Origin: Acutalibacteraceae bacterium
GTDB lineage: Bacteria > Bacillota > Clostridia > Oscillospirales > Acutalibacteraceae
Assembly (NCBI GenBank): GCA_045578425.1
Contig: JAZNKF010000065.1
Location: forward strand, 10,105 to 74,104
DNA: 64,000 nucleotides
Reading direction: 5' to 3'
A model generated the notes under the pieces. That model was not told where the DNA came from. It was given only the letters and a program-made list of their open reading frames with translations, and made no database searches. The translations under genes were made by a program, and so were the position numbers. Of this stretch, positions 18,171 through 54,580 are shown one piece after another; position 1 is the first letter of the stretch; each line of letters opens with the position of its first letter.

Positions 18171-18209
18171 GGTTTCTTCCTCCTTTAAAATTAATTTTTG
18201 CAAAATTCT

Positions 18210-19950: not shown

Positions 19951-19972
19951 ATAGTTTTCAGGAGGAAAAATT

Positions 19973-21165: not shown

Positions 21166-21178
21166 GGAGGAAATCTGT

Positions 21179-22222: not shown

Positions 22223-22228
22223 TGAATT

Positions 22229-25165: not shown

Positions 25166-25186
25166 TCCGTGCAAATCACGTGAGAA

Positions 25187-26386: not shown

Positions 26387-26420
26387 TAAAATTTAGATAA
26401 ATCAAACGGAGGAATTTGCA

Positions 26421-27467: not shown

Positions 27468-27468
27468 T

Positions 27469-28668: not shown

Positions 28669-28750
28669 GACAGTTTCTGCCACCGCTTTTTTGTGGCGGA
28701 TTTTTGTCTATTACATGGCAATTTTTAACTTCTGACGAGGTGGTAAAACG

Positions 28751-29935: not shown

Positions 29936-29961
29936 CATTCTTTCGACCTTGCAAAGAAACG

Positions 29962-30978: not shown

Positions 30979-30983
30979 AAATT

Positions 30984-32153: not shown

Positions 32154-32185
32154 ATTATAACGACGTATAATAGGGGGATGTTTTT

Positions 32186-32914: not shown

Positions 32915-32930
32915 TTAGGAGAAAGTATAT

Positions 32931-34001
32931 ATGATGTGCGAAAGCCCGTTAGACTCGTTTTTACAAGAAGATTTGGACTATGTGGCATCTCATTGTACGC
33001 CGCTGGAACAGTTGAAAAACTGTTCCGTTTTGGTCACAGGTGCTACCGGTTTAGTCGGCTCATTATTGGTAAAAACCTTGGCTTGCTACAACCGCAAGAA
33101 ACAAAGTAATATTACGGTATATTTGTTTGTACGAAACTTGGAAAAAGCAAAAACCATTTTTGGGGAATTGCTTGACCGTGAGGGTGTTCACGTGGTGGTT
33201 GGCGATATTACCGACACCAGCGAGTTGCCTCGTGTGGATTATATTTTCCATTGTGCCAGCGTTACCGCTTCCAAAACCATGATAACACAACCGGTGGAAA
33301 CCATTGCCACCGCCATAGACGGTACCAAAAACATTTTGGAATACGCCAAAAACAGCGGTGTTCGTTCACTTTTATATCTTTCGTCGATGGAAATGTATGG
33401 GTCGTTTGAGGATTGTCAAACACCCATCACCGAGGACATGTCCGGCTATGTTAATCCGTTGCTCACGCGCAGTAATTATCCGCTGAGCAAACGATTATGC
33501 GAAAATTTATGTATTGCCTATTCGGTGGAATACGGGTTAGATATCAAGATTGCTCGGTTGGCGCAAACTTTTGGTGCCGGTGTTCTCCCCGGTGAAAACC
33601 GCGTGTTTGCGCAATTTGCGCGCAGTGCCATGAACGGTACGGATATTGTGTTGCATACCAAAGGATTATCCGAAGGAAATTATTGCTATACGGCGGATGT
33701 TATTGACGGCTTGTTCCGCATTTTGCTGTCTGGTGAAAATGGTGGGGCGTATAACGTAGTAAATGAAAAAACGCATACTACCATTGCCGATATGGCACAC
33801 ATGGTTGCTAAAAAACTTGCTCAAAAACCGATTGCCGTAGTTTTTGATATTCCCGAAACAAATTTGCACGGCTATGCGCAAGATACCAAAATGCGTTTAT
33901 CTTCTGCCAAATTGCGCTCCTTGGGTTGGGAACCGAAAGTAGATTTAGAAGAAGCTTACCGCCGTTTGATGGGAAGTATGCACTTACAAAACATGAAATG
34001 A
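32931..34001 (+). CDS. Extended SDR, NAD-dependent epimerase/dehydratase/reductase family
   Basis: 356 aa with VTGATGLVGS Rossmann motif and YPLSK (YxxxK). It is paired with the cytidylyltransferase gene. Confidence 0.8.
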   Translation: MMCESPLDSFLQEDLDYVASHCTPLEQLKNCSVLVTGATGLVGSLLVKTLACYNRKKQSNITVYLFVRNLEKAKTIFGELLDREGVHVVVGDITDTSELPRVDYIFHCASVTASKTMITQPVETIATAIDGTKNILEYAKNSGVRSLLYLSSMEMYGSFEDCQTPITEDMSGYVNPLLTRSNYPLSKRLCENLCIAYSVEYGLDIKIARLAQTFGAGVLPGENRVFAQFARSAMNGTDIVLHTKGLSEGNYCYTADVIDGLFRILLSGENGGAYNVVNEKTHTTIADMAHMVAKKLAQKPIAVVFDIPETNLHGYAQDTKMRLSSAKLRSLGWEPKVDLEEAYRRLMGSMHLQNMK

Positions 34002-34033
34002 GTTCGTGTGTCGATACTTTGTGAGGTGACAAA

Positions 34034-35548
34034 ATGATTCGATTTTTCAAAAAATACAGTTTGTTTTTCTTTATCTTCTTTATTTCGATTTGGGTGTCTT
34101 TGGCCTCTACGTCGCTTAACGAGCAATTTCGTTTTTCGACTCTTGCCAATCAAGTTTTCACCTTTTTACTCTACCTCCCTTTCTTTTTGGTGATTCTTTG
34201 GAAAGTTGTTTCCGACTGTTTCTCTTTTCACCTCACTAAATTCAACGTACTGTACTATGCTTTCGGCGTATATTACGTTGCTTTAAGTGTTTACCGCCTC
34301 CTATCCGGCGGAGAATTTAAGGAAGGTATTTACTATGCCGTTGTGTTGTTTGGGGCGTTTTCGCTATACGCGCTTATAACCGACAAAAAATTAAATCTTT
34401 CTAATGAGGATTTATCCGATAACTTATTGGCCATTTTAACCTATATTGTATTATATAAAGTTGCTGTTACGTTTATGGAAGAAAATGTTTTCGGCAATCC
34501 GCCGATTAACAATTTATACAGCACCAGTATGCTAGCTTTGTTGTTACCGTTTATGGTAAGCGGTCTGCAAGAAAAAAAGGGTTGGAAAACAAAATTAAAC
34601 GGCGTGTTATGTTGTTTATCGCTGGTTTTGATTTTAACTTGCAGTTCTCGGGCGGTAGTGTTACTTTCCGCCGCAGTAATGATTGGTTTGCTGCTCGCGT
34701 TTATCACAAACGTAACGGTTATTAAATGGGCAGCGGTCTCTTTTGCATCTTCTTTGGTTTTAGTATCTATTTTAGCGGGTTTAAACGTTGGTAAAGTGCG
34801 TTATTCTTTGTATCGCGAGTTCAATATCTCGTTTGCCGTTTCGGACAAAGATACCCCTACCACCCCACCGTCCGGAGCAACAACTACTACCAATCAACAA
34901 ATGCCAACCTCAACCACACCTTCTGTTCCGACACAACCGACACCTACGCAACCAACACCGACAACTCCAAACAATCAACAAATGCCAACCTCAACCACAC
35001 CTTCTGTTCCGACACAACCAACACCGACGACCCCAAACAATCAACTTGCTACCGATACGCAAGAACAAATCAATCGCAGCGATGCGATGCGTGCCGATTT
35101 ATTAAAGCAAGGCATTGAGGAAGTTAAGAAGAACTTTCTCTTTGGTACCGGTGATTTGTATTACACCTACGACATGGGTTGGAAAACCATGGAGCAAACG
35201 GCTCATAACTTTTTGGTCGAATGTTTAGTTTGCTTTGGCTTAATCGGTACATTAATGATTTTAGCGTCGTTGTTATCTATACTCATTGACTTTGGTTTCT
35301 TTTCCAAAAAAGGCATTAAAAATTACAAGCAATGGACGTTTATCTTACTCGTCTGCTTTTATTATTTTGCATTTGGTATGGCACAACCGTCCGTCTTTAA
35401 TACGTTGGTATGCCCCACCTTTGTGATGGTTATCACGTATCACGGAAGACTGCTGTGCCCCGGTAAATCCGATGCATTGACAAAGACGTTTTGTTTGTTG
35501 AAATTAAAAAGAGGAACTGCTCATGTCACTGACCAACAACCGAAATAA
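34034..35548 (+). CDS. O-antigen ligase/polymerase family (Wzy_C domain) membrane protein with a Pro/Thr-rich repeat insertion
   Basis: 504 aa, multi-TM. A CSSRAVVLL block and a later FGTGDL...TAHNFLVECLVCFGLIG block are typical of the Wzy_C family. A PT-rich insert lies between them. Confidence 0.7.
   Translation: MIRFFKKYSLFFFIFFISIWVSLASTSLNEQFRFSTLANQVFTFLLYLPFFLVILWKVVSDCFSFHLTKFNVLYYAFGVYYVALSVYRLLSGGEFKEGIYYAVVLFGAFSLYALITDKKLNLSNEDLSDNLLAILTYIVLYKVAVTFMEENVFGNPPINNLYSTSMLALLLPFMVSGLQEKKGWKTKLNGVLCCLSLVLILTCSSRAVVLLSAAVMIGLLLAFITNVTVIKWAAVSFASSLVLVSILAGLNVGKVRYSLYREFNISFAVSDKDTPTTPPSGATTTTNQQMPTSTTPSVPTQPTPTQPTPTTPNNQQMPTSTTPSVPTQPTPTTPNNQLATDTQEQINRSDAMRADLLKQGIEEVKKNFLFGTGDLYYTYDMGWKTMEQTAHNFLVECLVCFGLIGTLMILASLLSILIDFGFFSKKGIKNYKQWTFILLVCFYYFAFGMAQPSVFNTLVCPTFVMVITYHGRLLCPGKSDALTKTFCLLKLKRGTAHVTDQQPK
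34891..35052 (+). repeat. In-frame tandem repeat, 81-nt period (27 codons), about 2 copies
   Basis: A 48-nt segment CAATCAACAAATGCCAACCTCAACCACACCTTCTGTTCCGACACAACC is perfectly repeated at 34891-34938 and 34972-35019. The flanks are similar but diverged. Confidence 0.9.
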
Positions 35549-37046
35549 ATATAGCATGCTCAATGCCTTATCGGCCGTTTCACTCACGTTAGTGAACGGC
35601 CTATTTGGCTTTGTTGTCACTCTGCTGATTTTACAGCATTACGGTTCGGATTTTAACGGGCTCAATTCCACCGCCAATCAAGTCGTCCACGTTTTAATGA
35701 TTGTGGAAGGCGGCTTTACAACAGCTTCAAACGTAGCCTTATTTGCACCGTATGTCAAAGGCGATTACACGCTTGTCAACGGTATTTTGGCGGCGACACA
35801 AAAGAAATTCCGCCGTATCGGCACCTTATTTTTTATCGTCGGTACGGTTGTTTCCTTTGGATATGCCTTGCTGGCAAACAGTGCCTTGGAGCGCGAATTC
35901 ATTTTCACAGTTATCATGATGACCATGATTCCCCCGGCATTCAACCTGTTCTATGCCAGCACCTACCGTGTGTTGTTACAAGCACAGCAAAAAGAATATA
36001 TTGTTAGCTTTACCACCACTGTCACCATCGGTTTGGGACATATTGCTAACATTATCATGATTACCAATGGCGGACCGATGTGGATGGTGCGTGTTAACAC
36101 CATGACATTTTCGCTGCTGAGTTATTTGATTATTGCCGGCTATACCAAAAAGAAAAACAAATTTATCGATTTCAAAATCCCGCCGCAACCGGAATTGATA
36201 AAAGGTACCGGCGATGTAATGGCGCAACGCGTCACCAGCGTTATTTTTGACTCGGCTCCTTTGATTTTCCTTTCCATCTCTCCTGCCGGCGGAACGGTTT
36301 TAGCCAGTGTGTACGCGGTATACAACAATGTGTTTATCATCCTCAAAAATCTGTTGCGCAGTTTGATTGATGCACCTCGCCTTGGTTTTGGTGAGATGCT
36401 GACACACCGCAAACGCGAAGATGTCTGGCCGGCTTATTCACAATATGAGTATTTGATTTTTACCGCTGTTTTTGTAGTACTTACTACCGCTTGTGCCGTC
36501 ATCCTACCTTTTATTAAAATTTATACCAACGGCATCAACGATGCCAATTATGTGGATATTGCCATTGCGGTTTTAATGGTTTCCTGCTCTGTGTTGGAAT
36601 TGTTACATATTCCGAGTTTTCATCTTATCAACATGGCAGGGCATTTCCGTATCAGCCGTAACATTCAAATTATTTCTTGCATTGTTTTGTTGGTGTCGCT
36701 AGGCATCGGCGGCACGCTTTGGGGACTGTACGGCATGCTAGCCTCGGTTTTGTTGGTCGGTCTTTTGCTTTGCGTGCTGGAAATGGGTTACGTTCACGTT
36801 TACTTTTTCAAGGGCAAATTAAGGCACTTGCTTCGTCTGTTATTACCATTGGTTATTGTGGGAGTTGCTATTTGTTGGGTAGAACTTTCGTTGGTTCTCC
36901 CCATCGACAATTACTTTACTTTCGTTTTGTTCGGTGCGCTTTTTGTGTGCATCAACGGTGCCGTAGCACTGTTCACCGGCTTTGTGTTCAACCGCCGCGA
37001 ATTAACAGCTTTACTTAAACGCGGATTGGCACTTATCAAGCGATAA
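35523..37046 (+). CDS. MOP-superfamily polysaccharide flippase (Wzx-like)
   Basis: 507 aa with about 12-14 TM helices, positioned at the end of the glycan locus, RBS AGAGGA upstream. Assigned from topology and context; sequence motifs are weak. Confidence 0.7.
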   Translation: MSLTNNRNKYSMLNALSAVSLTLVNGLFGFVVTLLILQHYGSDFNGLNSTANQVVHVLMIVEGGFTTASNVALFAPYVKGDYTLVNGILAATQKKFRRIGTLFFIVGTVVSFGYALLANSALEREFIFTVIMMTMIPPAFNLFYASTYRVLLQAQQKEYIVSFTTTVTIGLGHIANIIMITNGGPMWMVRVNTMTFSLLSYLIIAGYTKKKNKFIDFKIPPQPELIKGTGDVMAQRVTSVIFDSAPLIFLSISPAGGTVLASVYAVYNNVFIILKNLLRSLIDAPRLGFGEMLTHRKREDVWPAYSQYEYLIFTAVFVVLTTACAVILPFIKIYTNGINDANYVDIAIAVLMVSCSVLELLHIPSFHLINMAGHFRISRNIQIISCIVLLVSLGIGGTLWGLYGMLASVLLVGLLLCVLEMGYVHVYFFKGKLRHLLRLLLPLVIVGVAICWVELSLVLPIDNYFTFVLFGALFVCINGAVALFTGFVFNRRELTALLKRGLALIKR

Positions 37047-37102
37047 AAAAACAGCATAACGCCCGTATTACTTGTAATAGTAATACGGGCGTTATGTTAT
37101 TT
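37044..37102. terminator. Bidirectional intrinsic terminator shared by the two convergent glycan loci
   Basis: An 18/19-bp stem GCATAACGCCCGTATTACT (37054-37072) pairs with AGTAATACGGGCGTTATG (37079-37096), with A8 upstream and T6 downstream. Confidence 0.85.
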
Positions 37103-38203
37103 TTTAAGGCCCAATATAATATCGCAAATAGTGTCCACGTCCGAAAGAGGCAGATCGGCATACAGTGGCAATGTTAATACTTGATGGCTGATACGCAATG
37201 CAACAGGCGTTTCATTTGAGTCGTATTGACCGCTAAAACAATCAAAAGCGTTGGTCAGCGGATAAAAATATTTGCGAGCACCAATACCGTTTTGCGCCAG
37301 TGCCTCCATAACTTCATTACGGTCGACACCAAACACCGCTTTATCAAATATCACAGGGAAATACGAATAGTTTGGTTGAACATCTCTTTGGACGGGATTT
37401 AATTGTAAACCGTTCACACCAGCGAGCCGTTCATAATAGCGGTCAACAACGGTTTTGCGTTTGGCGATTTCCTCGTCAATGTGGCGTAAATTGCACAGTC
37501 CCATAGCAGCGCAAAATTCGTTCATTTTCGCATTGGCACCCACGCCATCCACAATCTCCGGACCGCGAATACCAAAGTTTTTAAGGCCGTACAACTCTCT
37601 GCCAAAAGCTTCGTCGTGGTAGCACACAGCGCCGCCCTCGATGGAATTGAATACTTTGGTGGCATGGAAACTAAAACACGAAACGTCACCAAAATCACCG
37701 ATGCCTCTGCCTTTATATTTTACACCAAAGGTATGCGCCGCATCGTAAATGACTTTCAGGTTATATTTTTGGGCAATGCGTTCAATTTCTTCGACATTAC
37801 AAATGTTACCGTATACGTGGACGGGTACGATGGCCGACGTTTTTTCCGTAATTAAGGATTCCAATTTATTAACGTCCATGGTAAAATCCACGGGATTAAT
37901 ATCGCAAAACACTGGCTTTAGACCATTACGTACAATCGCATGAGTGGTGGAAGCAAACGTAAACGGGGTAGTAATGACTTCCCCACTCAGATGCAACGCT
38001 TGCATGGAAAGTTCCAATGCCATGTGACCATTGGTGAGTAAATCCACCGCATCTACGGCTAAATAGTCCGCCAGTTGCGTTTGCAATGCTTTGTGCTTTG
38101 GTCCCATATTGGTCAGCCAATGGCTGTCCCAAATATCCTTTATTTCTTCACAGTATTCTTCAAACGAAGGCATGGAAGAACGGGTCACTAAAATGCGATT
38201 CAT
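37097..38203 (-). CDS. DegT/DnrJ/EryC1/StrS-family PLP-dependent sugar aminotransferase
   Basis: ATG 38203 follows GAGGTG. The FHATKVFNSIEGG (Schiff-base Lys region), DAAH and overall family pattern are present. Confidence 0.9.
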   Translation of the reverse strand: MNRILVTRSSMPSFEEYCEEIKDIWDSHWLTNMGPKHKALQTQLADYLAVDAVDLLTNGHMALELSMQALHLSGEVITTPFTFASTTHAIVRNGLKPVFCDINPVDFTMDVNKLESLITEKTSAIVPVHVYGNICNVEEIERIAQKYNLKVIYDAAHTFGVKYKGRGIGDFGDVSCFSFHATKVFNSIEGGAVCYHDEAFGRELYGLKNFGIRGPEIVDGVGANAKMNEFCAAMGLCNLRHIDEEIAKRKTVVDRYYERLAGVNGLQLNPVQRDVQPNYSYFPVIFDKAVFGVDRNEVMEALAQNGIGARKYFYPLTNAFDCFSGQYDSNETPVALRISHQVLTLPLYADLPLSDVDTICDIILGLKK

Positions 38204-38214
38204 ACCGCTACACC

Positions 38215-38496
38215 TCAATTCGATTGCCGATTTTCGTCATTAATCGTTAAGCTTTTTTGCTTTTTCAAGTACATGGTAAGGAGGCCTAAGCAGACAACAA
38301 TATTACCACCGTAAATTAAAACACCAAAAATTTTCTTTTGAATAAACACGCAAATAGCCGTTGCGGTTTCCCCGCCAATGACAAAAGCGACCAGAAAACC
38401 CAAAAACGTTAATCCGCCTGCAAACAAGCAAAAGAAGATTCCGTAACTGTATATTTTTGTGAGTACCGCAATAAGTTTTTTCAAAAAGGCAGTCAT
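38215..38496 (-). CDS. Small hydrophobic protein (2-3 TM helices), unknown function
   Basis: ATG 38496 follows AAGGAG. It is 93 aa and sits tightly between the DctM-like and DegT genes. I recognise no family. Confidence 0.5.
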   Translation of the reverse strand: MTAFLKKLIAVLTKIYSYGIFFCLFAGGLTFLGFLVAFVIGGETATAICVFIQKKIFGVLIYGGNIVVCLGLLTMYLKKQKSLTINDENRQSN

Positions 38497-38512
38497 ATCG
38501 TTCGCTCCTTTC

Positions 38513-39871
38513 TCACAGGCCAAGAATGGGCAGTACTTCAAGCAACATGAGCACTTCCAGGATATATTGCGCGGCTACCCACCACAAATCGTTGATGACC
38601 GTTTTCTTAAAATCCGATTCCGCAATACTCATGCCCGCATACATACCAAGCGCCAACGGCGGTGTGATACCGCACATGACACCGCAAATGCAGGGAAGCA
38701 TAGCGGCAATATACAGCGGATTGGAACCCACCGCGGCAAACGCCGCAATGAATACCGGACCAAAAATAACGACTTGCGATGAACCGGGAACCACCATCCC
38801 TAAAAAGCACGTAATCAACGGGACAACAAAGGCTAATCCCACGCGGGAAAGATTCATTTGGCTCAAAAATACCGAAAGGCCGGTGGTAACGTCGATATCG
38901 GCAAATAATTCGCCAATCATGTAGCCAAACAAGCAGGCGGCAATCGGCCCGACCAAGGATTTCATCTTGTTGCCAAACACATCCGCTAACTTGGCAAGGG
39001 TGAATTCTTTTTTGTTTTCGGCAATGAGCAAGGCATAAATCGTCGCAATACCGGCAATGAAAAACAACAAACATTTGGAAAAAGCCGAAGCCCCTGCCGT
39101 TCCCAGACGCTGCGCAATAAAATCCGACGCTACGCTATCAAACACAAACGGAACCAAGATAATAACGGGTAAAAGCAGCCCTTTCCAGCCGTTTTTGAAC
39201 GTTTCTTTGAGCGAGGGGATATCTTCCTTTGCCATGGGCTTGACATGATAATATTTGCAGAATGCCCACACCATCAAGATGCGCTGTGCAATAAAATACA
39301 GCGAGATACCCCACAACACTACCCAGAATTGTCCTGATGTCACCTGGGCGTCGGGATACAGCGCCATAAAGGCACCGAGTGCTCCCACAATATTGGAACT
39401 CGGCGGAATCATGTTACCAAGATAACTGGAAGTGCTTTCGACATTGGCTGCCAAATGCGACGGAAAACCCACTTTTTTCATAGCGGGAATGGTAATCACA
39501 CCGGTTGCCATGACATTGCCGGGACCCGAACCCGAAAGGGCGCCCATGAACGATGAAGTAATCACCGCCACGTAACCGGCACCACCCGTGACACGACCTA
39601 AACATGACAGGATTAAATACACGCACGAATCGATTACCTTGGTGTGTGTCAGCAATTGGCTCATTGCCACAAAAGCAATCATGGAATACAACAAGCCTGT
39701 GGAAAGAGCGCCGTCTATGTATTGCCAAATATTTTCCCACGTACCGGTAATCGCTACCAAAATCAGAAACGACAAAAACAGTGCTTCATACACGGGACGT
39801 TTGAGCAGTACAAACCACAGTAAAATAAACGCTAATAAAAAGATAAGATACAACAGTGCAGAAGGTATCAT
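38513..39871 (-). CDS. TRAP-transporter large-permease-like protein (DctM family)
   Basis: 452 aa, RBS AAGGAG. It has GALSGSGPGNVMATGVITIPAMKKVGFP, GNMIPPSSNIV and GITPPLALGMY, which resemble conserved DctM blocks. No DctP or DctQ gene lies in the window. Confidence 0.7.
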   Translation of the reverse strand: MIPSALLYLIFLLAFILLWFVLLKRPVYEALFLSFLILVAITGTWENIWQYIDGALSTGLLYSMIAFVAMSQLLTHTKVIDSCVYLILSCLGRVTGGAGYVAVITSSFMGALSGSGPGNVMATGVITIPAMKKVGFPSHLAANVESTSSYLGNMIPPSSNIVGALGAFMALYPDAQVTSGQFWVVLWGISLYFIAQRILMVWAFCKYYHVKPMAKEDIPSLKETFKNGWKGLLLPVIILVPFVFDSVASDFIAQRLGTAGASAFSKCLLFFIAGIATIYALLIAENKKEFTLAKLADVFGNKMKSLVGPIAACLFGYMIGELFADIDVTTGLSVFLSQMNLSRVGLAFVVPLITCFLGMVVPGSSQVVIFGPVFIAAFAAVGSNPLYIAAMLPCICGVMCGITPPLALGMYAGMSIAESDFKKTVINDLWWVAAQYILEVLMLLEVLPILGL

Positions 39872-39874
39872 TTT

Positions 39875-41104
39875 TTACTCCTTAATATCAGGCAACAAAT
39901 CGTGCCGCATAATATCCGTCCCGTTAACGTCTAGTACTTTCACGGCGGCGGTGGCAGTTTTGTGTTTTTGCTGTAATTCCCCGATGGAATCTGCCCCAAT
40001 CGTAAATCCGCAAACACGGTCACCGCTACTTTGAATACCCGTCATCTGTGCACCTTGCCATTTGAATAAATAATAGTCCACAATGACACCGTTTCTTTTA
40101 AGTTCTTCAAAACCAACAAGTTTATCAAACACACCATTTTGGCAATAGACAAACTCGTTACTGATATACCGGTATTTCCCGCCAAGATCCCCGACATGAG
40201 GTATCTGCCCCAACGTCAAATCGACAACTCCTTGAATGACATCAAAACCACTGGCATTTTGAATCATCAAATATTTCACACCGCCGCCGGTACGCGCACT
40301 GAATTCCAACACGAATATATGCCCGTTACGGTAAATGGCTTGTATCAACATGGGGGCATTTTTAATACCGAAAGCATCCGCAATTTTTTGCGCGACTTCG
40401 CCTATTTCTTCTTGTACGATTGTTGCTTCTTTGGCGGGGTAATTGCCGCGGAATATCACAAATTTATCGGCATCGGCAATTTTTTCACTGTTCGATACGC
40501 ACAGCACGTGCGCTTTGCCCTCTTCTACCCATACATCAATGGAAAGTTCGGGACCCTCAATGAACTCTTCTGCCACAGCGGTACCGGTACGACTAAATTC
40601 CAGTGCATCGGCAAGTGCCGCTTTGAATTCGGCCATGTTGGTCACTTTGCGGACACCTTTGGAGCTGTTACAATCCGCCGGTTTAACAATTAAAGGAAAG
40701 GACAAGTTGGGGAGCGTGTACGGTTCGTTTTTGTGAATGGTCACATGCTTTGCTGTGGGAATGCCGTTTGCTAAAAAGACATCTTTCATGTATTTTTTGT
40801 TGGTGACGTTGCGTGCCGTTTCGTAATCCACGTAACACGGCAACCTCAGATTTTCCGAAACCTTGGCAACCGTCAGCAACGCTTGGTCAGTACACGCGGT
40901 AATCAAAAAGTCAACCGCTTCCGATTGCGCGATTTCTTGTATTTTTTCGACATCTAACGTGGAAACTTGAAAAAATTTATCGGCATACGGTTTTGCCACC
41001 GGCTCGGCATAGTAATCTGCCAATAATGTATAAATACCGCGGCGTTTTAATTCACCAATTAACGCGATTTGTGCATATCCGCCGGCAAGTACCAAAGCTT
41101 TCAT
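39875..41104 (-). CDS. ATP-grasp domain ligase (carboxylate-amine ligase-like), copy A
   Basis: ATG 41104 starts MKALVLAGG. It shows PLIVKPADCNSSKGV, EEFIEGPELSID and LEFSARTGGG, the ATP-grasp fold signatures. Confidence 0.8.
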   Translation of the reverse strand: MKALVLAGGYAQIALIGELKRRGIYTLLADYYAEPVAKPYADKFFQVSTLDVEKIQEIAQSEAVDFLITACTDQALLTVAKVSENLRLPCYVDYETARNVTNKKYMKDVFLANGIPTAKHVTIHKNEPYTLPNLSFPLIVKPADCNSSKGVRKVTNMAEFKAALADALEFSRTGTAVAEEFIEGPELSIDVWVEEGKAHVLCVSNSEKIADADKFVIFRGNYPAKEATIVQEEIGEVAQKIADAFGIKNAPMLIQAIYRNGHIFVLEFSARTGGGVKYLMIQNASGFDVIQGVVDLTLGQIPHVGDLGGKYRYISNEFVYCQNGVFDKLVGFEELKRNGVIVDYYLFKWQGAQMTGIQSSGDRVCGFTIGADSIGELQQKHKTATAAVKVLDVNGTDIMRHDLLPDIKE

Positions 41105-41109
41105 GTTTT

Positions 41110-42120
41110 TCACCCTTTTTTTGTCGTTAAAATCAATTCCTTGTAAGCGCGAACACCGCTTTTGGCCGTCAACCATTCAGGCAACACCTCTTGACCGCTT
41201 ACCCAATTCACCAGTGCCCGCGGGAGATTGCACCCTGCCACGTGGCTGAACGGATACCCTCCACCGAATCGAGCGTTCATTTCCAAAACATACGGTCTTC
41301 CGTCTACCAAAAAGAAATCGCAATCCATGTTGCCGATATGCTTGGTCAGTTTCCCAAGCCGCTCTGCTTCGGCAAACAAGGCTGGTTCTTCTACCGTTTC
41401 ACCGATATCGGTCTCACCTGCACGCATGGCTAATTTCTTTTTCACAATAGCGTTGCAAAACCGACCTTCCAAATCGTTGATAATATCGATACCGTATTCC
41501 TGCCCTGTCAACATTTCCTGGAAAATAATTTTTTCTTCCACCGTATCCGACTCATACCTAAGATACGTTCTGCGGACAGCTCGTGTATTGCGCGTATAGT
41601 AATATAACAGCGCCATTTCATCTTCTGCCACCGACATGGCTAAGGAACCGCAGCCGAAGCGCGGTTTAACAATGACAGGATAATGAATTTCACCGGATTC
41701 CAACGCCAACATAGCAGATTGCAAAGTCAAATACGTTTTGGGAACACCAAAGCCGTTTTCTTTCAAAAACTCGTATGTTTTCCATTTGTCGTTGCATATT
41801 TCCAGCAAATTTGCATCAGATACGACAACACGTGTGCCAATGGCTTCAAAGCGGTCCTTGTTTTTTGCCAACACCGGTAAATCAATATCAAACAGCGATA
41901 CAATCATATCAATAGCTTGTTCTTTACAGTAGTTAAGTAAAAACGGAATATATTCATCACTGTAAATAAGCGGGGAAATCACACTGCGGTCAGCATATTG
42001 AAACGCTACCGTTAAATCATCGGAATTGCAAACATGTACTTCTCCGTCGGGTACTACGGCTTGTTTAAAATATTGTACCATGTAAGCCCGTCTGCCAACC
42101 GAAGTCAATAAAACGTTCAT
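41110..42120 (-). CDS. ATP-grasp domain ligase (carbamoyl-phosphate-synthase-L-like ATP-binding domain), copy B
   Basis: 336 aa with PVIVKPRFGCGS, FQEMLTGQEYGIDII and VLEMNARFGGGYPFSH. Confidence 0.8.
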   Translation of the reverse strand: MNVLLTSVGRRAYMVQYFKQAVVPDGEVHVCNSDDLTVAFQYADRSVISPLIYSDEYIPFLLNYCKEQAIDMIVSLFDIDLPVLAKNKDRFEAIGTRVVVSDANLLEICNDKWKTYEFLKENGFGVPKTYLTLQSAMLALESGEIHYPVIVKPRFGCGSLAMSVAEDEMALLYYYTRNTRAVRRTYLRYESDTVEEKIIFQEMLTGQEYGIDIINDLEGRFCNAIVKKKLAMRAGETDIGETVEEPALFAEAERLGKLTKHIGNMDCDFFLVDGRPYVLEMNARFGGGYPFSHVAGCNLPRALVNWVSGQEVLPEWLTAKSGVRAYKELILTTKKG

Positions 42121-42123
42121 ACC

Positions 42124-42591
42124 CTACTCCTTTTCAAAATAGCACACCAAATGCGTGTTCTGCGGACGGGGTTCGTTCGGCAACAAGAATGGCTTAAAAC
42201 CCAAACCGTGATACAGGCGTATTGCAGTCGCATTGGAATTTGTGGTATATAGATGCACCCCGTCAAGGCCTTTGGCACGACTGATACCCAAAAACTCTTT
42301 GACCAAATAACGAGCATGGCCTTTCCCCTGCGCTGCAGGCAACGTTGCCACCACCGAAATATATCCCAACCGATTATCGGTGTTTTCGGTATATCCCGCA
42401 ACCATCGCTACTATCGTGTCGCCTTCAAACTTCGCGCATATAGTTGCTTTTTCATTGAGTTTTTGAGCAAAAGAAAACAATTCTTGTTTTTGAGATAAAG
42501 GAACCTCAAACAGTGTATCCACGGCAGTGAGAAAGGTAAAAATTTGTGATACAGATGGTTTAGTCATGAATAATCGTTCCCTTTTGGTCAT
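42124..42591 (-). CDS. GNAT-family N-acetyltransferase
   Basis: 155 aa with the acetyl-CoA-binding region YISVVATLPAAQGKGHARYLVKEF. The alternative start at 42567 (ATGACTAA overlap with the flippase stop) is at least as likely. Confidence 0.8.
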   Translation of the reverse strand: MTKRERLFMTKPSVSQIFTFLTAVDTLFEVPLSQKQELFSFAQKLNEKATICAKFEGDTIVAMVAGYTENTDNRLGYISVVATLPAAQGKGHARYLVKEFLGISRAKGLDGVHLYTTNSNATAIRLYHGLGFKPFLLPNEPRPQNTHLVCYFEKE

Positions 42592-44023
42592 TATCGGCTT
42601 TTTTAAAAATTGCCAGTAACACTAACAGTCCCTTGGGGCGGAAAATCAGCGATAATGTAAGATATACCACAATTCCACTGACAATTTGTAACAACACCGT
42701 AACAAGCGGCGGCAGTGCTATGCGAGCAATTAACCAGACGGCACCCAGCATAACTGTCGAAAACAAAATGGCCGGAAAAATATCTTTGATTTGTTCGGTG
42801 TAGGAATAATCGATCAGTTTTTTGTTGGGGTAAGCATTGACAAAACAACTAATCAAGGTGCTCACCGCGCCGCTCAGCGCAATCGCAATCGGCGAGTCAA
42901 AAAACAGAACGGCAGCGATAAGCAATAACAACCCATACGATTTTTTTATCAGTTCCAACTTGAGAAACAAGTCGCTGCGCCCCATCGCGTTGATGGCTTG
43001 TAAATTACAAGTATGTACCGGCATAAACAAAAGCGTGAAACAGTAAATTTGCAAATACGGTACACACGGTAACCATTTTTCGGTCAACAACACTTTTACC
43101 AACGGTTCGGCAATACCGGCTAGTCCAAACAACACAGGAAAAACCACGTAAGCGCTCACCGCGATAGACGTTTGCATCAAAGTTTTTACTTGTGTTTTGT
43201 CATCTTGTTTGGCGGACATAGCGGGCAACATGACACTTTGTACGGCACCATTGATGCCGTTAATAACAAATTGTGGAAATTGTTTGCCGCGGTTATAAAA
43301 TCCCAGTGTATCGGCCTGATATTTTTTGCCGATTACCAAACTGCGAATGTCTTGATACAAGGTATCCAACAAACCGGAAACGAGCAGTTTCCAGCCATAG
43401 GTAAAGAGTACTTTTACCCTCTCAATATTACACACCAAACGCGGGCGCCAGTCCACCACTTTGAACATAACCAAGCAGGCAATCAACACGTTGAGTACGT
43501 TTTGTACCACCAAAGCCCACACACCGGCGTTTTGGTAAGCCAACGCAATACCCACCACACCGGAAATCACAATACCAAAAGTATTGCTAAAAAACACTTT
43601 GCGAAAATCAAGCTCACGGCTGACCTTGGCCAGTTGAACGGAATTAAAACTACCCGGAAACAACACCAACATCAACACGCGAAACGGCCAGACGATTTCC
43701 GGCATTTTATAGAAAGTAGCAATCGCCGGTGCTGCAAAAAACAAACCGCCGTACACTAACGCAGAAACTCCCATCGTCACCCAAAAAACCGAGGAATAAT
43801 CCTCTTCGGTGACCTCTTTGTTTTGCATTAGCGAGGTATTGAAACCCGACTGAATAAATACGTTTGCCAGATTAACGAAAATCAGCATCATTGCCAAAGC
43901 ACCGTAATGCTCCGGTATCATAATCCGTGCTAAAATCAGTTGCAGAACAAACTGTATTCCTTGAACACCGAAACGCTCCAGCAACTTCCATAGCATACCA
44001 CCTGCAACCGTATTCTGTTTCAT
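42560..44023 (-). CDS. MOP-superfamily oligosaccharide flippase (Wzx)
   Basis: The start MKQNTVAGGMLWKLLERFGVQGIQFVLQLILARI at 44023 overlaps the upstream stop (ATGA). This is a typical Polysacc_synt N-terminus with about 14 TM helices. Confidence 0.8.
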   Translation of the reverse strand: MKQNTVAGGMLWKLLERFGVQGIQFVLQLILARIMIPEHYGALAMMLIFVNLANVFIQSGFNTSLMQNKEVTEEDYSSVFWVTMGVSALVYGGLFFAAPAIATFYKMPEIVWPFRVLMLVLFPGSFNSVQLAKVSRELDFRKVFFSNTFGIVISGVVGIALAYQNAGVWALVVQNVLNVLIACLVMFKVVDWRPRLVCNIERVKVLFTYGWKLLVSGLLDTLYQDIRSLVIGKKYQADTLGFYNRGKQFPQFVINGINGAVQSVMLPAMSAKQDDKTQVKTLMQTSIAVSAYVVFPVLFGLAGIAEPLVKVLLTEKWLPCVPYLQIYCFTLLFMPVHTCNLQAINAMGRSDLFLKLELIKKSYGLLLLIAAVLFFDSPIAIALSGAVSTLISCFVNAYPNKKLIDYSYTEQIKDIFPAILFSTVMLGAVWLIARIALPPLVTVLLQIVSGIVVYLTLSLIFRPKGLLVLLAIFKKADNDQKGTIIHD

Positions 44024-44976
44024 GCACTCACCCACAATTCTTTGTGCAACACATGATGGCGTAAAAAATATTCGAAATACAAACAAATAGTGGCACATTT
44101 TTTCGGGATGTGGGACAGATAGCCCCTAAAATCACGCCACGTTAACTGCCGTTGTTTGACACCTTGCACCAAGGAACGAAAATACAACAACTGCGCATAT
44201 TTAATCGCTGTTTTATTGGTCTGCCGCAAGGCGTATTGCAACAGTTCAAAATACCAGTGCTCATCTTTGGTAAAAGAATACCGCGACGTCGCGCTGAAAC
44301 TGCTGCCATGTGTGGTAATGTGTCGATATGCGCTCATAACTTCCTGCATACAAAACACTTTGCCGTGTGTTGCCAATGCAAAATATAATAAGCGGTCACC
44401 CGGTGAAAGCCGACGTTCAAACAGCGAGGTGTCCATATACGGCTCGTTCATATAATTACGGCACATAACGGTGGTAAGTTGCCCCGGCATTTGTTCGCTG
44501 ACAAAATGACGCAAGGTGTATTCCTCATCCTTACATTCGGGATATTGTTCCCCGTTAGGCAGAGAATCCTCCCCCACCACCACGCAATTATGCGCTACGG
44601 CCAAATATTCGGGATGCGTTTCCAAAAACGTGATTTGTTTTTCGAGCTTGTTTTCATCTGTCCAAAAATCATCGCCTTCTAAGGCAATGATATATTTACC
44701 GCGGCACCGTCTTTTCAAATCCAAAGCGTTAGACACTTCACTGCCGTGCATATTTTTTTCGCGGTAAAACATGGTGAATTTGCCCGGAAAACGCGCTTCA
44801 TACTCCTGCAAAATCGCGCGTGTACCATCGGTGGAAACGTCTTCTCCTACCAAGACTTCATAGGAATACTGCGTTTTTTGCATGAGTACGCTATCCAGCG
44901 CGCGGGCAATATAGTTTTCGTGATTATAGGTAGGAATATAAATGCTAAGCATCGGTTGATTCATACGGCTCACCAT
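44020..44976 (-). CDS. GT2-family glycosyltransferase
   Basis: LSIYIPTYNHENYIARALDSVLMQ and the GEDVSTDGT / EGDDFW (DxD) motifs are present. Confidence 0.85.
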   Translation of the reverse strand: MVSRMNQPMLSIYIPTYNHENYIARALDSVLMQKTQYSYEVLVGEDVSTDGTRAILQEYEARFPGKFTMFYREKNMHGSEVSNALDLKRRCRGKYIIALEGDDFWTDENKLEKQITFLETHPEYLAVAHNCVVVGEDSLPNGEQYPECKDEEYTLRHFVSEQMPGQLTTVMCRNYMNEPYMDTSLFERRLSPGDRLLYFALATHGKVFCMQEVMSAYRHITTHGSSFSATSRYSFTKDEHWYFELLQYALRQTNKTAIKYAQLLYFRSLVQGVKQRQLTWRDFRGYLSHIPKKCATICLYFEYFLRHHVLHKELWVSA

Positions 44977-45545
44977 TTTTGGTCCTTTTCACTGAGATTC
45001 AGCGGTGTACCGTCGGCAAGCGTGTATCCTGCGGCGCTTGCTGTACCGCGATATTCGCCCACTACTTCCGGCCAAACGATACCGATTTTTGGGTCGTTCC
45101 ACGCCAATCCGCCCTCGTCGCCGGGATGGTAAAAATCGGTTACTTTGTAACAAAATTCTGCGGTATCACTCAGGACCAAAAAGCCATGGGCAAAACCCTC
45201 GGAAATGTAAAACTGTTTTTTGTTTTCCTCGGTTAATTCCACGCCAAACCATTGCCCATAAGTGGGGCTACCGTCACGAATATCCACTGCCACGTCGAAC
45301 ACGCGACCTTTGATAACCCGCACTAATTTTCCTTGCGCGTATTGTTTTTGAAAATGCAATCCTCGCAACACGCCCTTGACCGACATGCTCTGGTTATCTT
45401 GAACAAACACCATGTTAAGACCGGCTTCAGCCATATCTTTTTGGTTGTAGGTTTCGACAAAATAGCCGCGGCTATCCCCGTGGACAGTCGGTTCAATAAC
45501 GTATAACCCCTCTATCGGGCAAGGGGTGACTTTAATTTGCCCCAT
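44970..45545 (-). CDS. rfbC: dTDP-4-dehydrorhamnose 3,5-epimerase
   Basis: 191 aa with GDSRGYFVETY, RGLHFQ and AHGFLVLSD, the canonical RmlC blocks. Confidence 0.9.
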   Translation of the reverse strand: MGQIKVTPCPIEGLYVIEPTVHGDSRGYFVETYNQKDMAEAGLNMVFVQDNQSMSVKGVLRGLHFQKQYAQGKLVRVIKGRVFDVAVDIRDGSPTYGQWFGVELTEENKKQFYISEGFAHGFLVLSDTAEFCYKVTDFYHPGDEGGLAWNDPKIGIVWPEVVGEYRGTASAAGYTLADGTPLNLSEKDQKW

Positions 45546-46437
45546 CGTTTTCTAACTCCTTCAAATAGCGTGTCAGCGCGTCTTGCCACGTCGGCAACGG
45601 CCGGAAACCCGCTTTTTGTAACTTACACTTCTCTAAACGACTGTTAAACGGTCGCGCCGCTTTACTAAGCCCATATTCCGCGGTGGTCACCGGTACAACG
45701 CTGGTACTGTACCCCGCTTGACGAAAAATCTCGCAAGCAAAATCGTACCAACTGATATACCCGCCTTCGTTGGTGGCGTGGTAGAAACCATATTTTTCAG
45801 TTTCAATCATATCTACCAACAATCGCGCAAGGTCAAACGTGTACGTCGGTGTGCCGATTTGGTCGTTTACTACCCGTACCGTATCGTATTTCTTGCCGAC
45901 TTTGAGCATGGTTTTGATAAAGTTGTTTCCGTTTTTACCAAACACCCACGCGATACGTACTACAAAAAACTTATCCAGTGTAGTTTGCACCGCGCGTTCA
46001 CCGTCAAGCTTGGTTTGACCGTAGACATTCAGCGGTGCAAAGTCGCGGCAATCCGGTTCCCACGGTGTCTCCCCTTGTCCATCAAACACATAGTCGGTAG
46101 AAATATACATCATTTTGCAATCTACCAGTTTGCAAGCGGTGGCAAGGTACTGTGTACCAAGCGCGTTTACCGCTTTGACGGTATCGCGGTTTCCTTCGTC
46201 TTCGGCAGCATCCACCGCTGTCCAAGCCGCGCAATGAATGACCGCATCGGGTTTTGCTTCGGTAATCACCGACAAAACCGCAGTTTTATCGGTGATATCT
46301 AGTGGAATGTAGGGCCATTCGGTATGCGAACAGGACAAAGCAATATCCGAGCCGATACATTCGTGCCCACGTTTATGAAGTTCGTTCATAACATCGTAGC
46401 CTAACTGACCGCCGACACCGGTGACAAAAACTTTCAT
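45532..46437 (-). CDS. rfbD: dTDP-4-dehydrorhamnose reductase
   Basis: 301 aa with VTGVGGQLG, STDYVFDG and YGQTKLDGE, the canonical RmlD blocks. Confidence 0.9.
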   Translation of the reverse strand: MKVFVTGVGGQLGYDVMNELHKRGHECIGSDIALSCSHTEWPYIPLDITDKTAVLSVITEAKPDAVIHCAAWTAVDAAEDEGNRDTVKAVNALGTQYLATACKLVDCKMMYISTDYVFDGQGETPWEPDCRDFAPLNVYGQTKLDGERAVQTTLDKFFVVRIAWVFGKNGNNFIKTMLKVGKKYDTVRVVNDQIGTPTYTFDLARLLVDMIETEKYGFYHATNEGGYISWYDFACEIFRQAGYSTSVVPVTTAEYGLSKAARPFNSRLEKCKLQKAGFRPLPTWQDALTRYLKELENDGAN

Positions 46438-46446
46438 GGATAACTC

Positions 46447-47466
46447 CTATCGATTCGCGTACATTTTTTCGTAGTAGTGTTGATATTCACCGGAAATGAT
46501 GGTTTCCCACCATTCTTTATTATCCAAATACCACTGAATGGTTTTTTGAATACCGTCGGCAAATTTGGTTTCGGGCAGCCAACCCAATTCCGTATGAATT
46601 TTGGTGGGGTCAATGGCGTAACGCATATCGTGACCTTTACGGTCGGTAACGTAGGTAATCAAGCTTTCGGGTTTACCGAGCGCTTTACATATCATTTTGA
46701 CGATGTCAATATTTTTCATTTCGTTATGGCCGCCAATGTTATACACTTCACCCTCGCGACCGTTATGCAAGATTAAATCAATCGCTTTGCAATGGTCTTC
46801 CACGTACAACCAATCGCGAACGTTGAGGCCGTTGCCGTACACCGGTAACGGTTTGTCATTAAGAGCATTGGCAATCATCAGCGGAATGAGTTTTTCAGGA
46901 AAATGGTACGGACCGTAGTTGTTAGAACAGCGGGAAATCGTCACCGGCAAACCAAAGGTGCGGTGATACGCTTGTACCAACAAGTCGGCACCTGCTTTGG
47001 ACGAAGAATACGGCGAACTGGTATGAATCGGCGTTTCTTCCGTAAAGAACAAGTCGGGACGGTCAAGCGGTAAATCGCCGTACACTTCGTCGGTGGAAAC
47101 TTGGTGATATCGTTTGATACCGTATTTCCGACAAGCATCCATCAAGACTTGGGTACCCAAAATATTGGTTTGCAAAAACACTTCCGGGTTTTCGATAGAA
47201 CGGTCCACGTGACTTTCGGCGGCAAAGTTTACCACCATGTCGGGGCGTTCTTCTTCAAACAGTTGATATACCCCTGCGCGGTCGCAGATATCCAGTTTGA
47301 CAAAACGGAAGTTGGGATTGTCCATCACGGGAGCTAATGTGCTCAAATTCCCCGCGTAGGTAAGCTTGTCCAAGCAAATGATGCGATAATCGGGATATTT
47401 TTTAAGCATATGGAACACAAAATTCGAACCGATAAATCCCGCACCGCCGGTGACAATGATGGTCAT
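46447..47466 (-). CDS. rfbB: dTDP-glucose 4,6-dehydratase
   Basis: 339 aa with VTGGAGFIGSNF, STDEVYGD and YSSSKAGADLL, the canonical RmlB blocks. Confidence 0.95.
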   Translation of the reverse strand: MTIIVTGGAGFIGSNFVFHMLKKYPDYRIICLDKLTYAGNLSTLAPVMDNPNFRFVKLDICDRAGVYQLFEEERPDMVVNFAAESHVDRSIENPEVFLQTNILGTQVLMDACRKYGIKRYHQVSTDEVYGDLPLDRPDLFFTEETPIHTSSPYSSSKAGADLLVQAYHRTFGLPVTISRCSNNYGPYHFPEKLIPLMIANALNDKPLPVYGNGLNVRDWLYVEDHCKAIDLILHNGREGEVYNIGGHNEMKNIDIVKMICKALGKPESLITYVTDRKGHDMRYAIDPTKIHTELGWLPETKFADGIQKTIQWYLDNKEWWETIISGEYQHYYEKMYANR

Positions 47467-47478
47467 AGGTTTTCCTCC

Positions 47479-48363: not shown

Positions 48364-48385
48364 TGTAGTACTCCTTTTTATAGAA

Positions 48386-50787: not shown

Positions 50788-50816
50788 AAAATGGACCTCC
50801 CGAAGGCTATGGTAGA

Positions 50817-52914: not shown

Positions 52915-53004
52915 ATCGTGAAAAACCTCGCTTTTTGCACATTTCCCCAAAAAGTATTCTAACAACATTCCGTTTCCAAAACTACCCAATTATACATTCG
53001 GTTT

Positions 53005-54549: not shown

Positions 54550-54580
54550 GAAATCACCAAAATGATGAGGGGTGTTTTTT

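Follow-up and report, generated by a model that had tools for sequence, protein, structure and literature searches.

In the lic operons, the gene for the choline permease LicB shares a transcript with those for the enzymes that link this exogenous building block to a surface glycan. A scavenged carboxylate can likewise feed a surface glycan, as in H. influenzae, where TRAP-mediated uptake of sialic acid supplies the LOS (PMC5812351). Where characterised, TRAP systems strictly need a Q subunit (DctQ) and a binding protein P (DctP) in addition to the large DctM-type subunit (PMC9971032; PMC5812351). In PpSiaQM of P. profundum, the SGSG hairpin and the twin-proline motifs of the large subunit form the Na1 and Na2 sites (PMC9971032). 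Two other groups with an elevator-type fold, DASS (VcINDY, NaDC) and AbgT (YdaH, MtrF), are independent of a binding protein; they are homodimers without an accessory subunit. As for attachment, the L-amino-acid ligases (BL00235, PDB 3vot; RizA, 4wd3; BacD) and PylC share the ATP-grasp fold and form amide bonds via an acyl phosphate. Amide-linked N-acetyl amino acids are found on O-antigen amino sugars of E. coli O121 (N-acetylglycine), O114 (N-acetyl-L-serine) and O63 (N-acetyl-D-allo-threonine) (PMC7685785).

Here we analyse a 64-kb stretch of an Acutalibacteraceae genome (the window), in which a minus-strand glycan locus ends with six genes identified from their open reading frames (ORFs) and Pfam and NCBIfam matches. 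They encode, in order, a GNAT acetyltransferase, a PylC-like ATP-grasp ligase, an ATP-grasp ligase resembling L-amino-acid ligases (LAL-like), a DctM-family permease, a 93 amino acid membrane protein and a DegT-type aminotransferase. The gaps between them are 3, 5, 3, 16 and 11 nt, in agreement with a sequence-only reading of the same DNA that had described six packed genes with gaps of 3–20 nt. A strong bidirectional intrinsic terminator (37053–37098; 20-bp stem with T-runs on each strand) closes the operon and separates two convergent glycan loci. Finding a permease in a surface-glycan operon had been called unusual. It is indeed uncommon, but it has precedents in the sialic-acid TRAP system and the lic choline permease mentioned above. 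Like LicB, the permease would be an importer for an exogenous building block encoded with the attachment enzymes; it differs in transporter family and substrate, and the predicted attachment is an ATP-grasp amide ligation rather than phosphocholine transfer.

The permease (38513–39871, minus strand, 452 amino acids) matches Pfam PF06808 (DctM) with 160 bits (cutoff 23.8) over profile positions 3–409 of 413, and the profile comparison that the sequence-only reading had proposed thus places it among the DctM-family secondary permeases. Profile matches to the TRAP M subunits in the PDB show that the SGSG hairpin and both twin-proline motifs are kept, as in SiaPQM and the isethionate transporter IseQM; judged from these motifs, the transport core is intact. 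Foldseek returns TRAP QM structures as the top matches of the permease model, which is itself of low confidence (pLDDT 61.5), with DASS and AbgT proteins at ranks 8–35. We detected no sequence similarity to the latter two groups, Pfam giving DctM only, and the permease has a small partner, unlike these homodimers. The permease also departs from the described TRAP proteins. It scores under the NCBIfam cutoffs of both TIGR00786 and TIGR02123. The latter profile (TRAP_fused, the fused QM protein of TAXI-TRAP systems) is its best NCBIfam match, at 138 bits against a cutoff of 320.65, over profile positions 171–530 of 615; the match starts past the Q-like part, leaving the N-terminal Q-like third unmatched, and no TAXI protein is encoded nearby. 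In the comparison with PpSiaM, the scaffold stretch containing the Q/P-contact residue E237 and loop L7-8 is unaligned, and D50 aligns to Ser. Homologues form more than 3,400 clusters and are found in 486 species genomes, mostly in Oscillospirales gut MAGs; they are typically about 452 amino acids long (430–467 among the 120 clusters listed). By its sequence relationships, then, the permease is a member of a large distinct family and not a stray TRAP fragment.

Directly downstream lies the gene for the 93 amino acid protein (38215–38496, minus strand), which has an ATG start and its own ribosome-binding site (AAAGGAG, 8 nt upstream). The product is a hydrophobic membrane protein with two hydrophobic segments and K-rich ends, a putative small transporter subunit. 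Its family comprises 151 clusters at 50% identity, and no fusion to the permease was found among the 150 of these that were listed. Of 84 loci, 83 have the small gene 0–19 nt downstream of the permease gene, and the sole exception lies at a contig end. Even divergent paralogous pairs (44–46% and 28–31% identity, in L005 and L010) retain the order of permease and small gene. The two genes are therefore a fixed, obligate pair. The suggestion that the small protein is a Q-like partner found no support at the level of descent: no homology to DctQ was detectable, leaving a functional analogy at best.

We scanned all window ORFs of at least 150 amino acids that are not nested within a longer ORF against Pfam. 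None matched DctP (PF03480), DctQ (PF04290) or a TAXI binding protein, as the sequence-only reading had reported for DctP and DctQ in the 64 kb. Eight of the ORFs scanned have no Pfam match of any kind. Neither DctP nor DctQ occurs in four fully Pfam-labelled related contexts (L001, L004, L085, L086), and both are missing from the most frequent families in the neighbourhood of the permease at 78 loci. The permease could still be part of a canonical tripartite TRAP transporter, with DctQ and DctP or a TAXI protein encoded elsewhere in the genome and the 93 amino acid protein unrelated to transport. Its place in Pfam DctM and the strict need for Q and P in characterised systems would fit, and the sequence examined comprised the 64-kb window and some 20 kb for each related locus. 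We nevertheless regard such an arrangement as highly improbable in view of the near-invariant coupling to the small gene, the absence of DctP and DctQ from the four labelled contexts and the most frequent neighbour families, the scores under the curated TRAP cutoffs and the divergence in the stretch that contacts Q and P. The designation “orphan TRAP permease” says too little: the permease belongs to a distinct two-gene family whose members mostly lie beside a LysR gene and not in a glycan operon, whereas the window gene lies in a glycan operon and tripartite TRAP genes in catabolic or uptake operons.

Upstream of the pair, the profile searches on the two ATP-grasp proteins assigned one to each of two types. 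The PylC-like protein (41110–42120, minus strand, 336 amino acids; also labelled “carbamoyl-phosphate-synthase-like”) matches PF21360 (84 bits), PF02655 (66 bits) and NCBIfam NF009404 (365.6 bits, cutoff 316). Its best solved relative is the uncharacterised protein 2pn1 (E-value 5e-50), and orthologues with 60–70% identity adjoin the permease in L012 and L013. The LAL-like protein (39875–41104, minus strand, 409 amino acids) matches PF13535, PF07478 and PF02655 above cutoff, while LAL_C2 stays below it (25.0 against 29.4). Its longest ORF spans 39875–41176, but translation very likely begins at the ATG at 41104, since a ribosome-binding site lies there and homologues of 408–415 amino acids fit a product of 409; the DegT gene, too, starts downstream of its longest-ORF start. 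The nearest solved sequence relatives of the LAL-like ligase are the L-amino-acid ligases 3vot, 4wd3 and BacD, at a distance (E-value 2e-20 at best, for 3vot). About 18 of 81 loci have a homologue with at least 49% identity no more than 10 kb from the permease. Where ligases adjoin a permease pair, their number varies from one to three, and in a glycan operon of L005 two permease pairs come after two ligases; this variation weakens the earlier idea that two ligases build a dipeptide. The GNAT N-acetyltransferase (42124–42591, minus strand, 155 amino acids; PF00583, 55 bits), homologues of which stand at this point of the cassette in L011 and L012, has a weak NCBIfam match to a WecD-type dTDP-4-amino-sugar acyltransferase (E-value 4e-4).

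The remaining genes indicate what the acceptor might be. The last gene of the operon (37097–38203, minus strand, 368 amino acids; PF01041, 322 bits) encodes a DegT/DesI-like sugar 4-aminotransferase: its top NCBIfam match is DesI (TIGR04427, 303 bits against a cutoff of 650) and its best PDB relative is DesI itself (2po3, E-value 7e-59). In L011, L012, L013 and L078 an orthologue comes after the small gene. On the other side of the six genes, all on the minus strand, lie a Wzx-type flippase (42560–44098; PF13440, 311 bits), a GT2 glycosyltransferase (44020–44976; PF00535, 82 bits) and RmlC, RmlD, RmlB and RmlA (44970–48393; PF00908, PF04321, PF16363 and PF00483). In the upstream part of the locus (48386–52989), Pfam matches indicate a Wzy-like polymerase and three more glycosyltransferases, two of type GT2 and one weakly GT1-like; the O_anti_polymase and Glyco_trans_1_4 matches are under cutoff. 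RmlA and RmlB supply dTDP-4-keto-6-deoxyglucose, presumably the substrate of the DegT enzyme. Both accompany DegT and the pair in L001, L006, L008, L011, L012 and L013, in all of which a Wzx orthologue lies upstream of the cassette. An amino sugar as acceptor, one of two proposed earlier, fits this gene content. The other, a uronate, is unlikely because the Pfam results for the window ORFs include no match to a UDP-sugar dehydrogenase. The genomic context points to a nucleotide-sugar amine, and not a free amino acid, as the nucleophile of the ligases. The Pfam results show no initiating phosphoglycosyl transferase in this glycan locus, and the lack of one of its own counts against the reading we favour below.

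How general is this arrangement? The sequence-only reading had proposed a search for the cassette in other genomes, and it recurs: the permease pair lies between ligase and DegT genes in L011, L012, L013, L078 and L067 as in the window, and the first three keep the full order of ligase(s), permease, small gene, DegT, RmlA and RmlB. Within 2 kb of the permease the density of ATP-grasp genes is 0.89 per 10 kb, against 0.10–0.12 at 6–10 kb, roughly an eightfold difference, and DegT and RmlAB are linked to the pair far above a distance-matched background. Of 81 loci, 24 have an ATP-grasp gene within 2.5 kb of the pair and 32 have one within 10 kb; the other 49 have none at that range. A LysR gene is the immediate upstream neighbour in 62 of 78 loci. 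Taken together, the last two counts suggest that the primary role of the family may be ordinary nutrient uptake. The window pair itself might then be a general importer of organic or amino acids for catabolism, located in or near variable glycan regions but with no role in the glycan, and with ligases using intracellular substrates only. Most of the main permease clade, which has no ligase nearby, would fit such a role, and certain neighbours point to it and away from the glycan: two PrpD genes, an aminotransferase and a 2-oxoacid oxidoreductase in L010, and an Asp/Glu racemase in L085. The surroundings in L086 contain nothing related. For the window we consider this unlikely. The pair is set between ligase and DegT at six loci and with gaps of only 3–16 nt in the window, ATP-grasp genes cluster close to it, and the embedding is repeated in different gene orders and several clades (at least three of them include cassettes that lack LysR and are embedded in an operon). 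Moreover, the loss of LysR tracks the embedding, with an adjacent ligase in 11 of about 17 LysR-less loci.

Transport in the opposite direction deserves consideration, since the nearest solved relatives of the LAL-like ligase form dipeptides. The ligase and the pair might make and secrete a dipeptide-like metabolite of the bacilysin type, or remove a toxic intermediate, the glycan genes being mere neighbours. Often a LAL ligase, LysR and the pair sit together at the edge of a glycan locus and not inside it (L001, L006, L008, L058, L059, L084), and the AbgT-family relatives of the fold found by Foldseek include efflux pumps. Export is nonetheless quite improbable in our estimate: the nearest relatives in sequence and structure are TRAP importers whose Na+-site motifs are kept (PMC9971032), DegT, RmlA and RmlB travel with the pair, and we saw no self-resistance or peptide-maturation genes in the cassettes.

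We favour a reading in which the permease pair imports an acid by itself and the ligases attach this acid to the 4-amino sugar of a surface polysaccharide, and give it a probability of about 0.5. That the pair recurs beside amide-forming ligases in many genomes suggests that it probably imports an acid destined for a cell-surface sugar. The permease and the 93 amino acid protein would form a physical complex, a two-subunit, ion-coupled secondary transporter of the TRAP DctM lineage working without DctQ or a binding protein, and would bring in an organic acid, possibly an amino or hydroxy acid. That a cell has no obvious need to take up an acyl donor from outside counts against this. RmlA, RmlB and the DesI-like aminotransferase would make a dTDP-4-amino-4,6-dideoxyhexose. 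Both ATP-grasp ligases would convert a carboxylate into an acyl phosphate and amide-link the acid to the 4-amino group of this sugar, and the GNAT protein may acetylate the free amine that remains after ligation. The product would enter a Wzx/Wzy-dependent, rhamnose-containing surface polysaccharide. The combination of GNAT, ligase, DegT and RmlAB would predict a 4-amino-6-deoxyhexose that bears an (amino)acyl group with an acetyl cap; this predicted product resembles the substituted sugars of E. coli O121, O114 and O63. Alternatively, as its weak WecD-like match hints, the GNAT protein could place the acetyl group on the amino sugar itself; the ligases would then lack an obvious acceptor, which would count against the reading we favour. 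If that reading is true, the pair would represent a TRAP-lineage two-gene importer dedicated to supplying a surface-glycan decoration.

The transporter genes lie in a compact run of six minus-strand genes at the end of an operon. A GNAT acetyltransferase (42124-42591; PF00583, 55.3 bits against a cutoff of 20.7) is followed by two ATP-grasp ligases, one PylC-like (41110-42120; NCBIfam NF009404, 365.6 bits against a cutoff of 316) and one resembling L-amino-acid ligases, here called LAL-like (39875-41104; 409 amino acids from a likely start ATG at 41104). Next come a DctM-family permease (38513-39871; PF06808, 160.3 bits against a cutoff of 23.8), a hydrophobic protein of 93 amino acids (38215-38496), and a DegT aminotransferase (37097-38203; PF01041, 322 bits). 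This is the layout that an earlier sequence-only reading had placed here, and it is borne out by ORF, Pfam, and NCBIfam analysis with two start codons slightly corrected. That reading put the intergenic gaps at 3-20 nt; they measure 3, 5, 3, 16, and 11 nt, and ribosome-binding sites are recognisable before the LAL-like, small, and DegT genes. Upstream on the same strand, Pfam identifies Wzx, GT2, RmlC, RmlD, RmlB, RmlA, a Wzy-like gene, and three more glycosyltransferases; no initiating transferase was found within this minus-strand glycan locus itself. A bidirectional terminator with a 20-bp stem (37053-37098) closes the operon and divides it from a second, convergent glycan locus.

The second locus (23729-37046, plus strand) contains a Bac_transf initiating transferase, a GT4, and an Acyl_transf_3 gene. 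It also carries FnlA/FnlB/FnlC-like genes (a Polysacc_synt_2 gene, an epimerase with Polysacc_synt_C, and a UDP-GlcNAc 2-epimerase), a TarL-like glycerol/ribitol-phosphate transferase, an IspD-like cytidylyltransferase, an SDR, a Wzy_C protein, and a 507 amino acid multi-TM protein without a Pfam match. It is directly preceded (21158-23416, plus strand) by genes for a phosphotriesterase-family protein (PF02126) and an M24 peptidase/prolidase. On the other side, the first gene of the minus-strand glycan locus and a gene for a Na+:alanine symporter (53114-54511, plus strand) are transcribed away from each other, and shortly beyond the symporter come an OPT oligopeptide transporter and an M20 peptidase (56161-58062 and 58126-59556, both minus strand). 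Other carboxylate-handling genes in the window, not adjoining the six-gene module, are a CitMHS-family transporter (7566-8669, minus strand) and a two-subunit class I fumarase (11637-13120, minus strand). Several ORFs of 250-395 amino acids have no Pfam match at E ≤ 1e-4 (54572-55759, 4866-6303, 17391-18203, and 19138-20788).

The permease is a DctM homologue over its whole length, since the PF06808 match spans profile positions 3-409 of 413. It scores below the curated cutoffs of both TIGR00786 (dctM; 108.5 bits, cutoff 268.45) and TIGR02123 (fused TRAP permease; 137.9 bits, cutoff 320.65). The fused model is matched only from profile position 171, past its Q-like part, and the matches of the permease family profile to fused QM chains in the PDB likewise begin after the Q domain. 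Only TRAP membrane components were retrieved in that PDB search, including PpSiaM, IseQM, and HiSiaQM. Two blocks align well: the first hairpin (SGSGPGNVMATG) with the twin-proline break MIPPSSN, and the second hairpin with the twin-proline break GITPPLALG. The motifs SGSGPGNVMATG, MIPPSSN, and GITPPLALG align with the Na+-site motifs of PpSiaM and IseQM (the hairpin SGS and the twin prolines where TM5 and TM11 break). In PpSiaQM, these hairpin and twin-proline elements build two Na+ sites (PMC9971032). Their conservation suggests that the transport domain is functional and probably ion-coupled. Permease residues 162-272 or so are unaligned in the profile alignment, which is weak there; this segment takes in the Q- and P-contacting E237 and loop 7-8 of PpSiaM, and PpSiaM D50 pairs with permease Ser57 in the same weak alignment. 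Because the alignment is weak, divergence at the Q- and P-contact positions is only suggestive. An AlphaFold2 model of the permease from a 13-sequence alignment was of low confidence (pLDDT 61.5, pTM 0.64), with the hairpins modelled worst, and served coarse fold matching alone. In a Foldseek search with it, TRAP QM structures ranked first, followed by AbgT and DASS elevator transporters.

The family is large. There are more than 3,400 clusters of permease homologues, and the 120 listed are 430-467 amino acids long, mostly 452. A motif scan of a single genome for each species turned up relatives in 486 species; the best 80 of these are nearly all MAGs of Oscillospirales and other Clostridia from guts and rumens.

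The gene for the 93 amino acid protein is an obligate companion of the permease gene. In 83 of 84 permease-bearing loci, the permease gene is followed after 0-19 nt, usually 12 nt, by one for a homologue of this protein, and the only locus without it ends with the contig at that point. The same gene order is kept in the divergent paralogue pairs of loci L005 and L010. In the protein, lysine-rich ends flank two long hydrophobic segments, and its family comprises 151 clusters at 50% identity. No fusion of permease and small protein was found among the 150 clusters listed; an unusually long match, cluster P0250, proved to be a repetitive, unrelated protein.

The small protein had been proposed as a possible minimal Q-like partner; no homology to DctQ was found. 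The protein and 79 homologues gave no match to DctQ (PF04290) at E ≤ 1, no SiaQ chain was matched by their profile in the PDB, and there are two hydrophobic segments as opposed to the four TM helices of DctQ. Similarity to TctB, seen in two of 80 members at E of about 0.015, was treated as chance. Some relatives are much longer (251-336 amino acids; clusters P0155, P0166, and P0239, and loci L088:215-970 and L089:4167-4949), their genes still lying 12-14 nt after that of a DctM-like permease. The extra length is a hydrophilic insertion of about 150 amino acids, predicted to be all-beta, precisely in the loop between the two helices. Confinement of the insertion to this single loop fits a predicted two-TM hairpin with both termini inside the cell and the loop outside. 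AlphaFold2 modelling and Foldseek gave no significant structural match for the inserted domain (best E 0.07), which may serve outside the cell as a receptor-like module.

What defines a TRAP transporter is that it cannot do without a Q subunit and a binding protein. The pair is like such transporters in its large subunit, a DctM homologue with Na+-site motifs, and differs in having neither Q nor P nearby and a permease below the curated NCBIfam cutoffs. We scanned with Pfam all window ORFs of at least 150 amino acids that do not lie inside a longer ORF and found no match to DctP, DctQ, or a TAXI binding protein, in line with the sequence-only reading, which had noted the lack of DctP and DctQ in the window. 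DctP, DctQ, and TAXI binding proteins are also absent from the four fully Pfam-labelled contexts of ±10 kb (L001, L004, L085, and L086), and the neighbour families seen most often around 78 loci include no DctP or TAXI binding protein. We consider it very improbable that the permease is part of a canonical TRAP system whose P and Q genes lie far away. The pair is best described, on sequence grounds, as a bipartite DctM-like transporter that would work like a TRAP-derived elevator importer.

What surrounds the pair in other genomes? A LysR regulator is the immediate upstream neighbour in 62 of the 78 loci, mostly divergently transcribed, and ATP-grasp ligases are the commonest functional neighbours after LysR. 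Using an HMM built on the ligases and binning by distance from the permease gene, we found ATP-grasp densities per 10 kb of 0.89 (0-2 kb), 0.34 (2-4 kb), 0.22 (4-6 kb), 0.10 (6-8 kb), and 0.12 (8-10 kb). Of 81 distinct loci, 32 have an ATP-grasp gene no more than 10 kb from the permease, and in 24 the distance is at most 2.5 kb. Homologues of the window's LAL-like ligase (at least 49% identity) stand beside the pair in about 18 loci, either directly upstream, upstream across LysR, or downstream. The sequence-only reading had called for a search for the same cassette elsewhere, and L011, L012, and L013 do carry similar arrangements (Wzx, optionally GNAT, one or more ligases, permease, small gene, DegT, RmlA, RmlB), parts of which also occur in L078 and L067. 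A variant order occurs in L001, L006, and L008: Wzx, LAL, DegT, RmlA, RmlB, LAL, LysR, permease, small gene. The permease travels with the small gene, and the pair is linked to the ligases.

Two loci have further features. In L005 (188-6665), two ATP-grasp genes are followed by two tandem pairs of permease and small gene, which looks like one importer per ligase. The two permeases are 46% and 83% identical to that of the window, and the glycan-operon companions are a GT4, an NTP_transf_5 gene, and a UDP-GlcNAc 2-epimerase. L067, a 4.8-kb contig from a MAG labelled Treponemataceae, carries a PylC-like ligase, a LAL ligase, a permease 65% identical to the window's, and a small gene; its presence in a spirochaete bin is due either to horizontal transfer or to faulty binning.

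Stand-alone LysR contexts account for most of the family, as would be expected if the pair were an ordinary LysR-controlled nutrient importer that merely adjoins glycan genes here. Two loci also look catabolic. In the Lachnospiraceae MAG locus L010 (4169-14517), which has no glycan genes, a permease 75% identical to the window's belongs to an operon with the order LysR, permease, small gene, PrpD, PrpD, second permease, second small gene, class I/II aminotransferase, and IOR-like 2-oxoacid oxidoreductase; this gene set hints at a di- or tricarboxylate or an amino acid as substrate. In L085, a stand-alone LysR-permease-small gene locus, an Asp/Glu-racemase-family gene (11794-12627) lies directly downstream of the small gene. 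Across loci, the neighbour signals for substrate are inconsistent (PrpD-family, Asp/Glu racemase, MFS, HAD, GFO_IDH_MocA, NamZ), and the last four seem to reflect synteny inherited within Acutalibacteraceae. For the window, however, an ordinary nutrient importer is unlikely: the pair is tightly embedded in the operon, ATP-grasp genes are enriched with proximity, and the embedding recurs across clades. When the permeases are clustered, operon embedding without LysR is seen in at least three clades, and in the window's own clade seven of eight members have a ligase within 2.5 kb.

The enzymes of the operon point to possible chemistry. ATP-grasp enzymes form amides via an acyl phosphate. The LAL-like ligase matches ATP-grasp_4 above cutoff (58.5 bits) and LAL_C2 below it (25.0 bits, cutoff 29.4), and its best PDB relatives are L-amino-acid ligases. 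The nearest solved relative of the PylC-like ligase is an uncharacterised PylC-like protein, and its family, NF009404 ("carbamoyl phosphate synthase-like"), carries no assigned reaction. For DegT, the best NCBIfam model is TIGR04427 (DesI), at 303 bits against a cutoff of 650, and the nearest PDB relative is DesI 2po3 (E 7e-59), a match from which product stereochemistry is not readable. RmlA and RmlB together make dTDP-4-keto-6-deoxyglucose.

It is tempting to join these elements into one pathway. RmlA and RmlB, going by their established function and Pfam matches, would supply dTDP-4-keto-6-deoxyglucose, which the DegT enzyme would convert to a dTDP-4-amino-4,6-dideoxyhexose. A carboxylate brought in by the pair would be joined to the amino group of this sugar by the ATP-grasp ligases, perhaps through two reactions, and a free amine would be capped by the GNAT enzyme. 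What the pair carries and in which direction, what accepts the acid, and the sequence in which the enzymes act are all inferred here, and we put the probability of the whole at roughly 0.5. A uronate, which the sequence-only reading had allowed as an acceptor, is unlikely and was set aside, since the window scans gave no UDP-sugar dehydrogenase match. Export or secretion of a metabolite by the pair together with the LAL ligase seems a distinctly poor prospect: the relatives are importers, and DegT and RmlAB genes travel with the pair, neither of which suits this reading.

Products of the kind proposed here, N-acetyl-aminoacyl amino sugars, are known from E. coli O antigens (PMC7685785), and sialic acid offers a case in which a scavenged acid is taken up by a TRAP transporter for display on surface glycans (PMC5812351). 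Our literature searches (orphan or SBP-independent DctM; DctM or TRAP with ATP-grasp in polysaccharide or capsule; ATP-grasp with viosamine) found no description of this permease family or of its association with ATP-grasp ligases in glycan loci. We tentatively suggest, at somewhat short of even odds, that the pair represents an undescribed bipartite branch of TRAP/DctM transporters without DctQ and binding protein, in which the small subunit would act as scaffold and the beta domain of some relatives perhaps as a built-in receptor. Gut Oscillospirales would repeatedly have plugged this importer into glycan operons beside ATP-grasp ligases, decorating their surface polysaccharides with acids from the gut lumen. 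If true, this would be a "scavenge-and-display" system, linking the chemistry of surface antigens to the metabolites on hand. A large DctM-like family in which a two-helix partner of 93 amino acids replaces Q and binding protein would also revise our view of the evolution and minimal architecture of elevator transporters. One operon with two membrane genes and two ligases provides a testable handle. The recurrence of the pair beside amide-forming ligases and a 4-amino-sugar pathway suggests that uncultured, abundant gut Clostridia may build their surface glycans partly from imported acids, in which case the chemistry of their capsule or cell-wall antigens would depend on diet or on the metabolites of other microbes.
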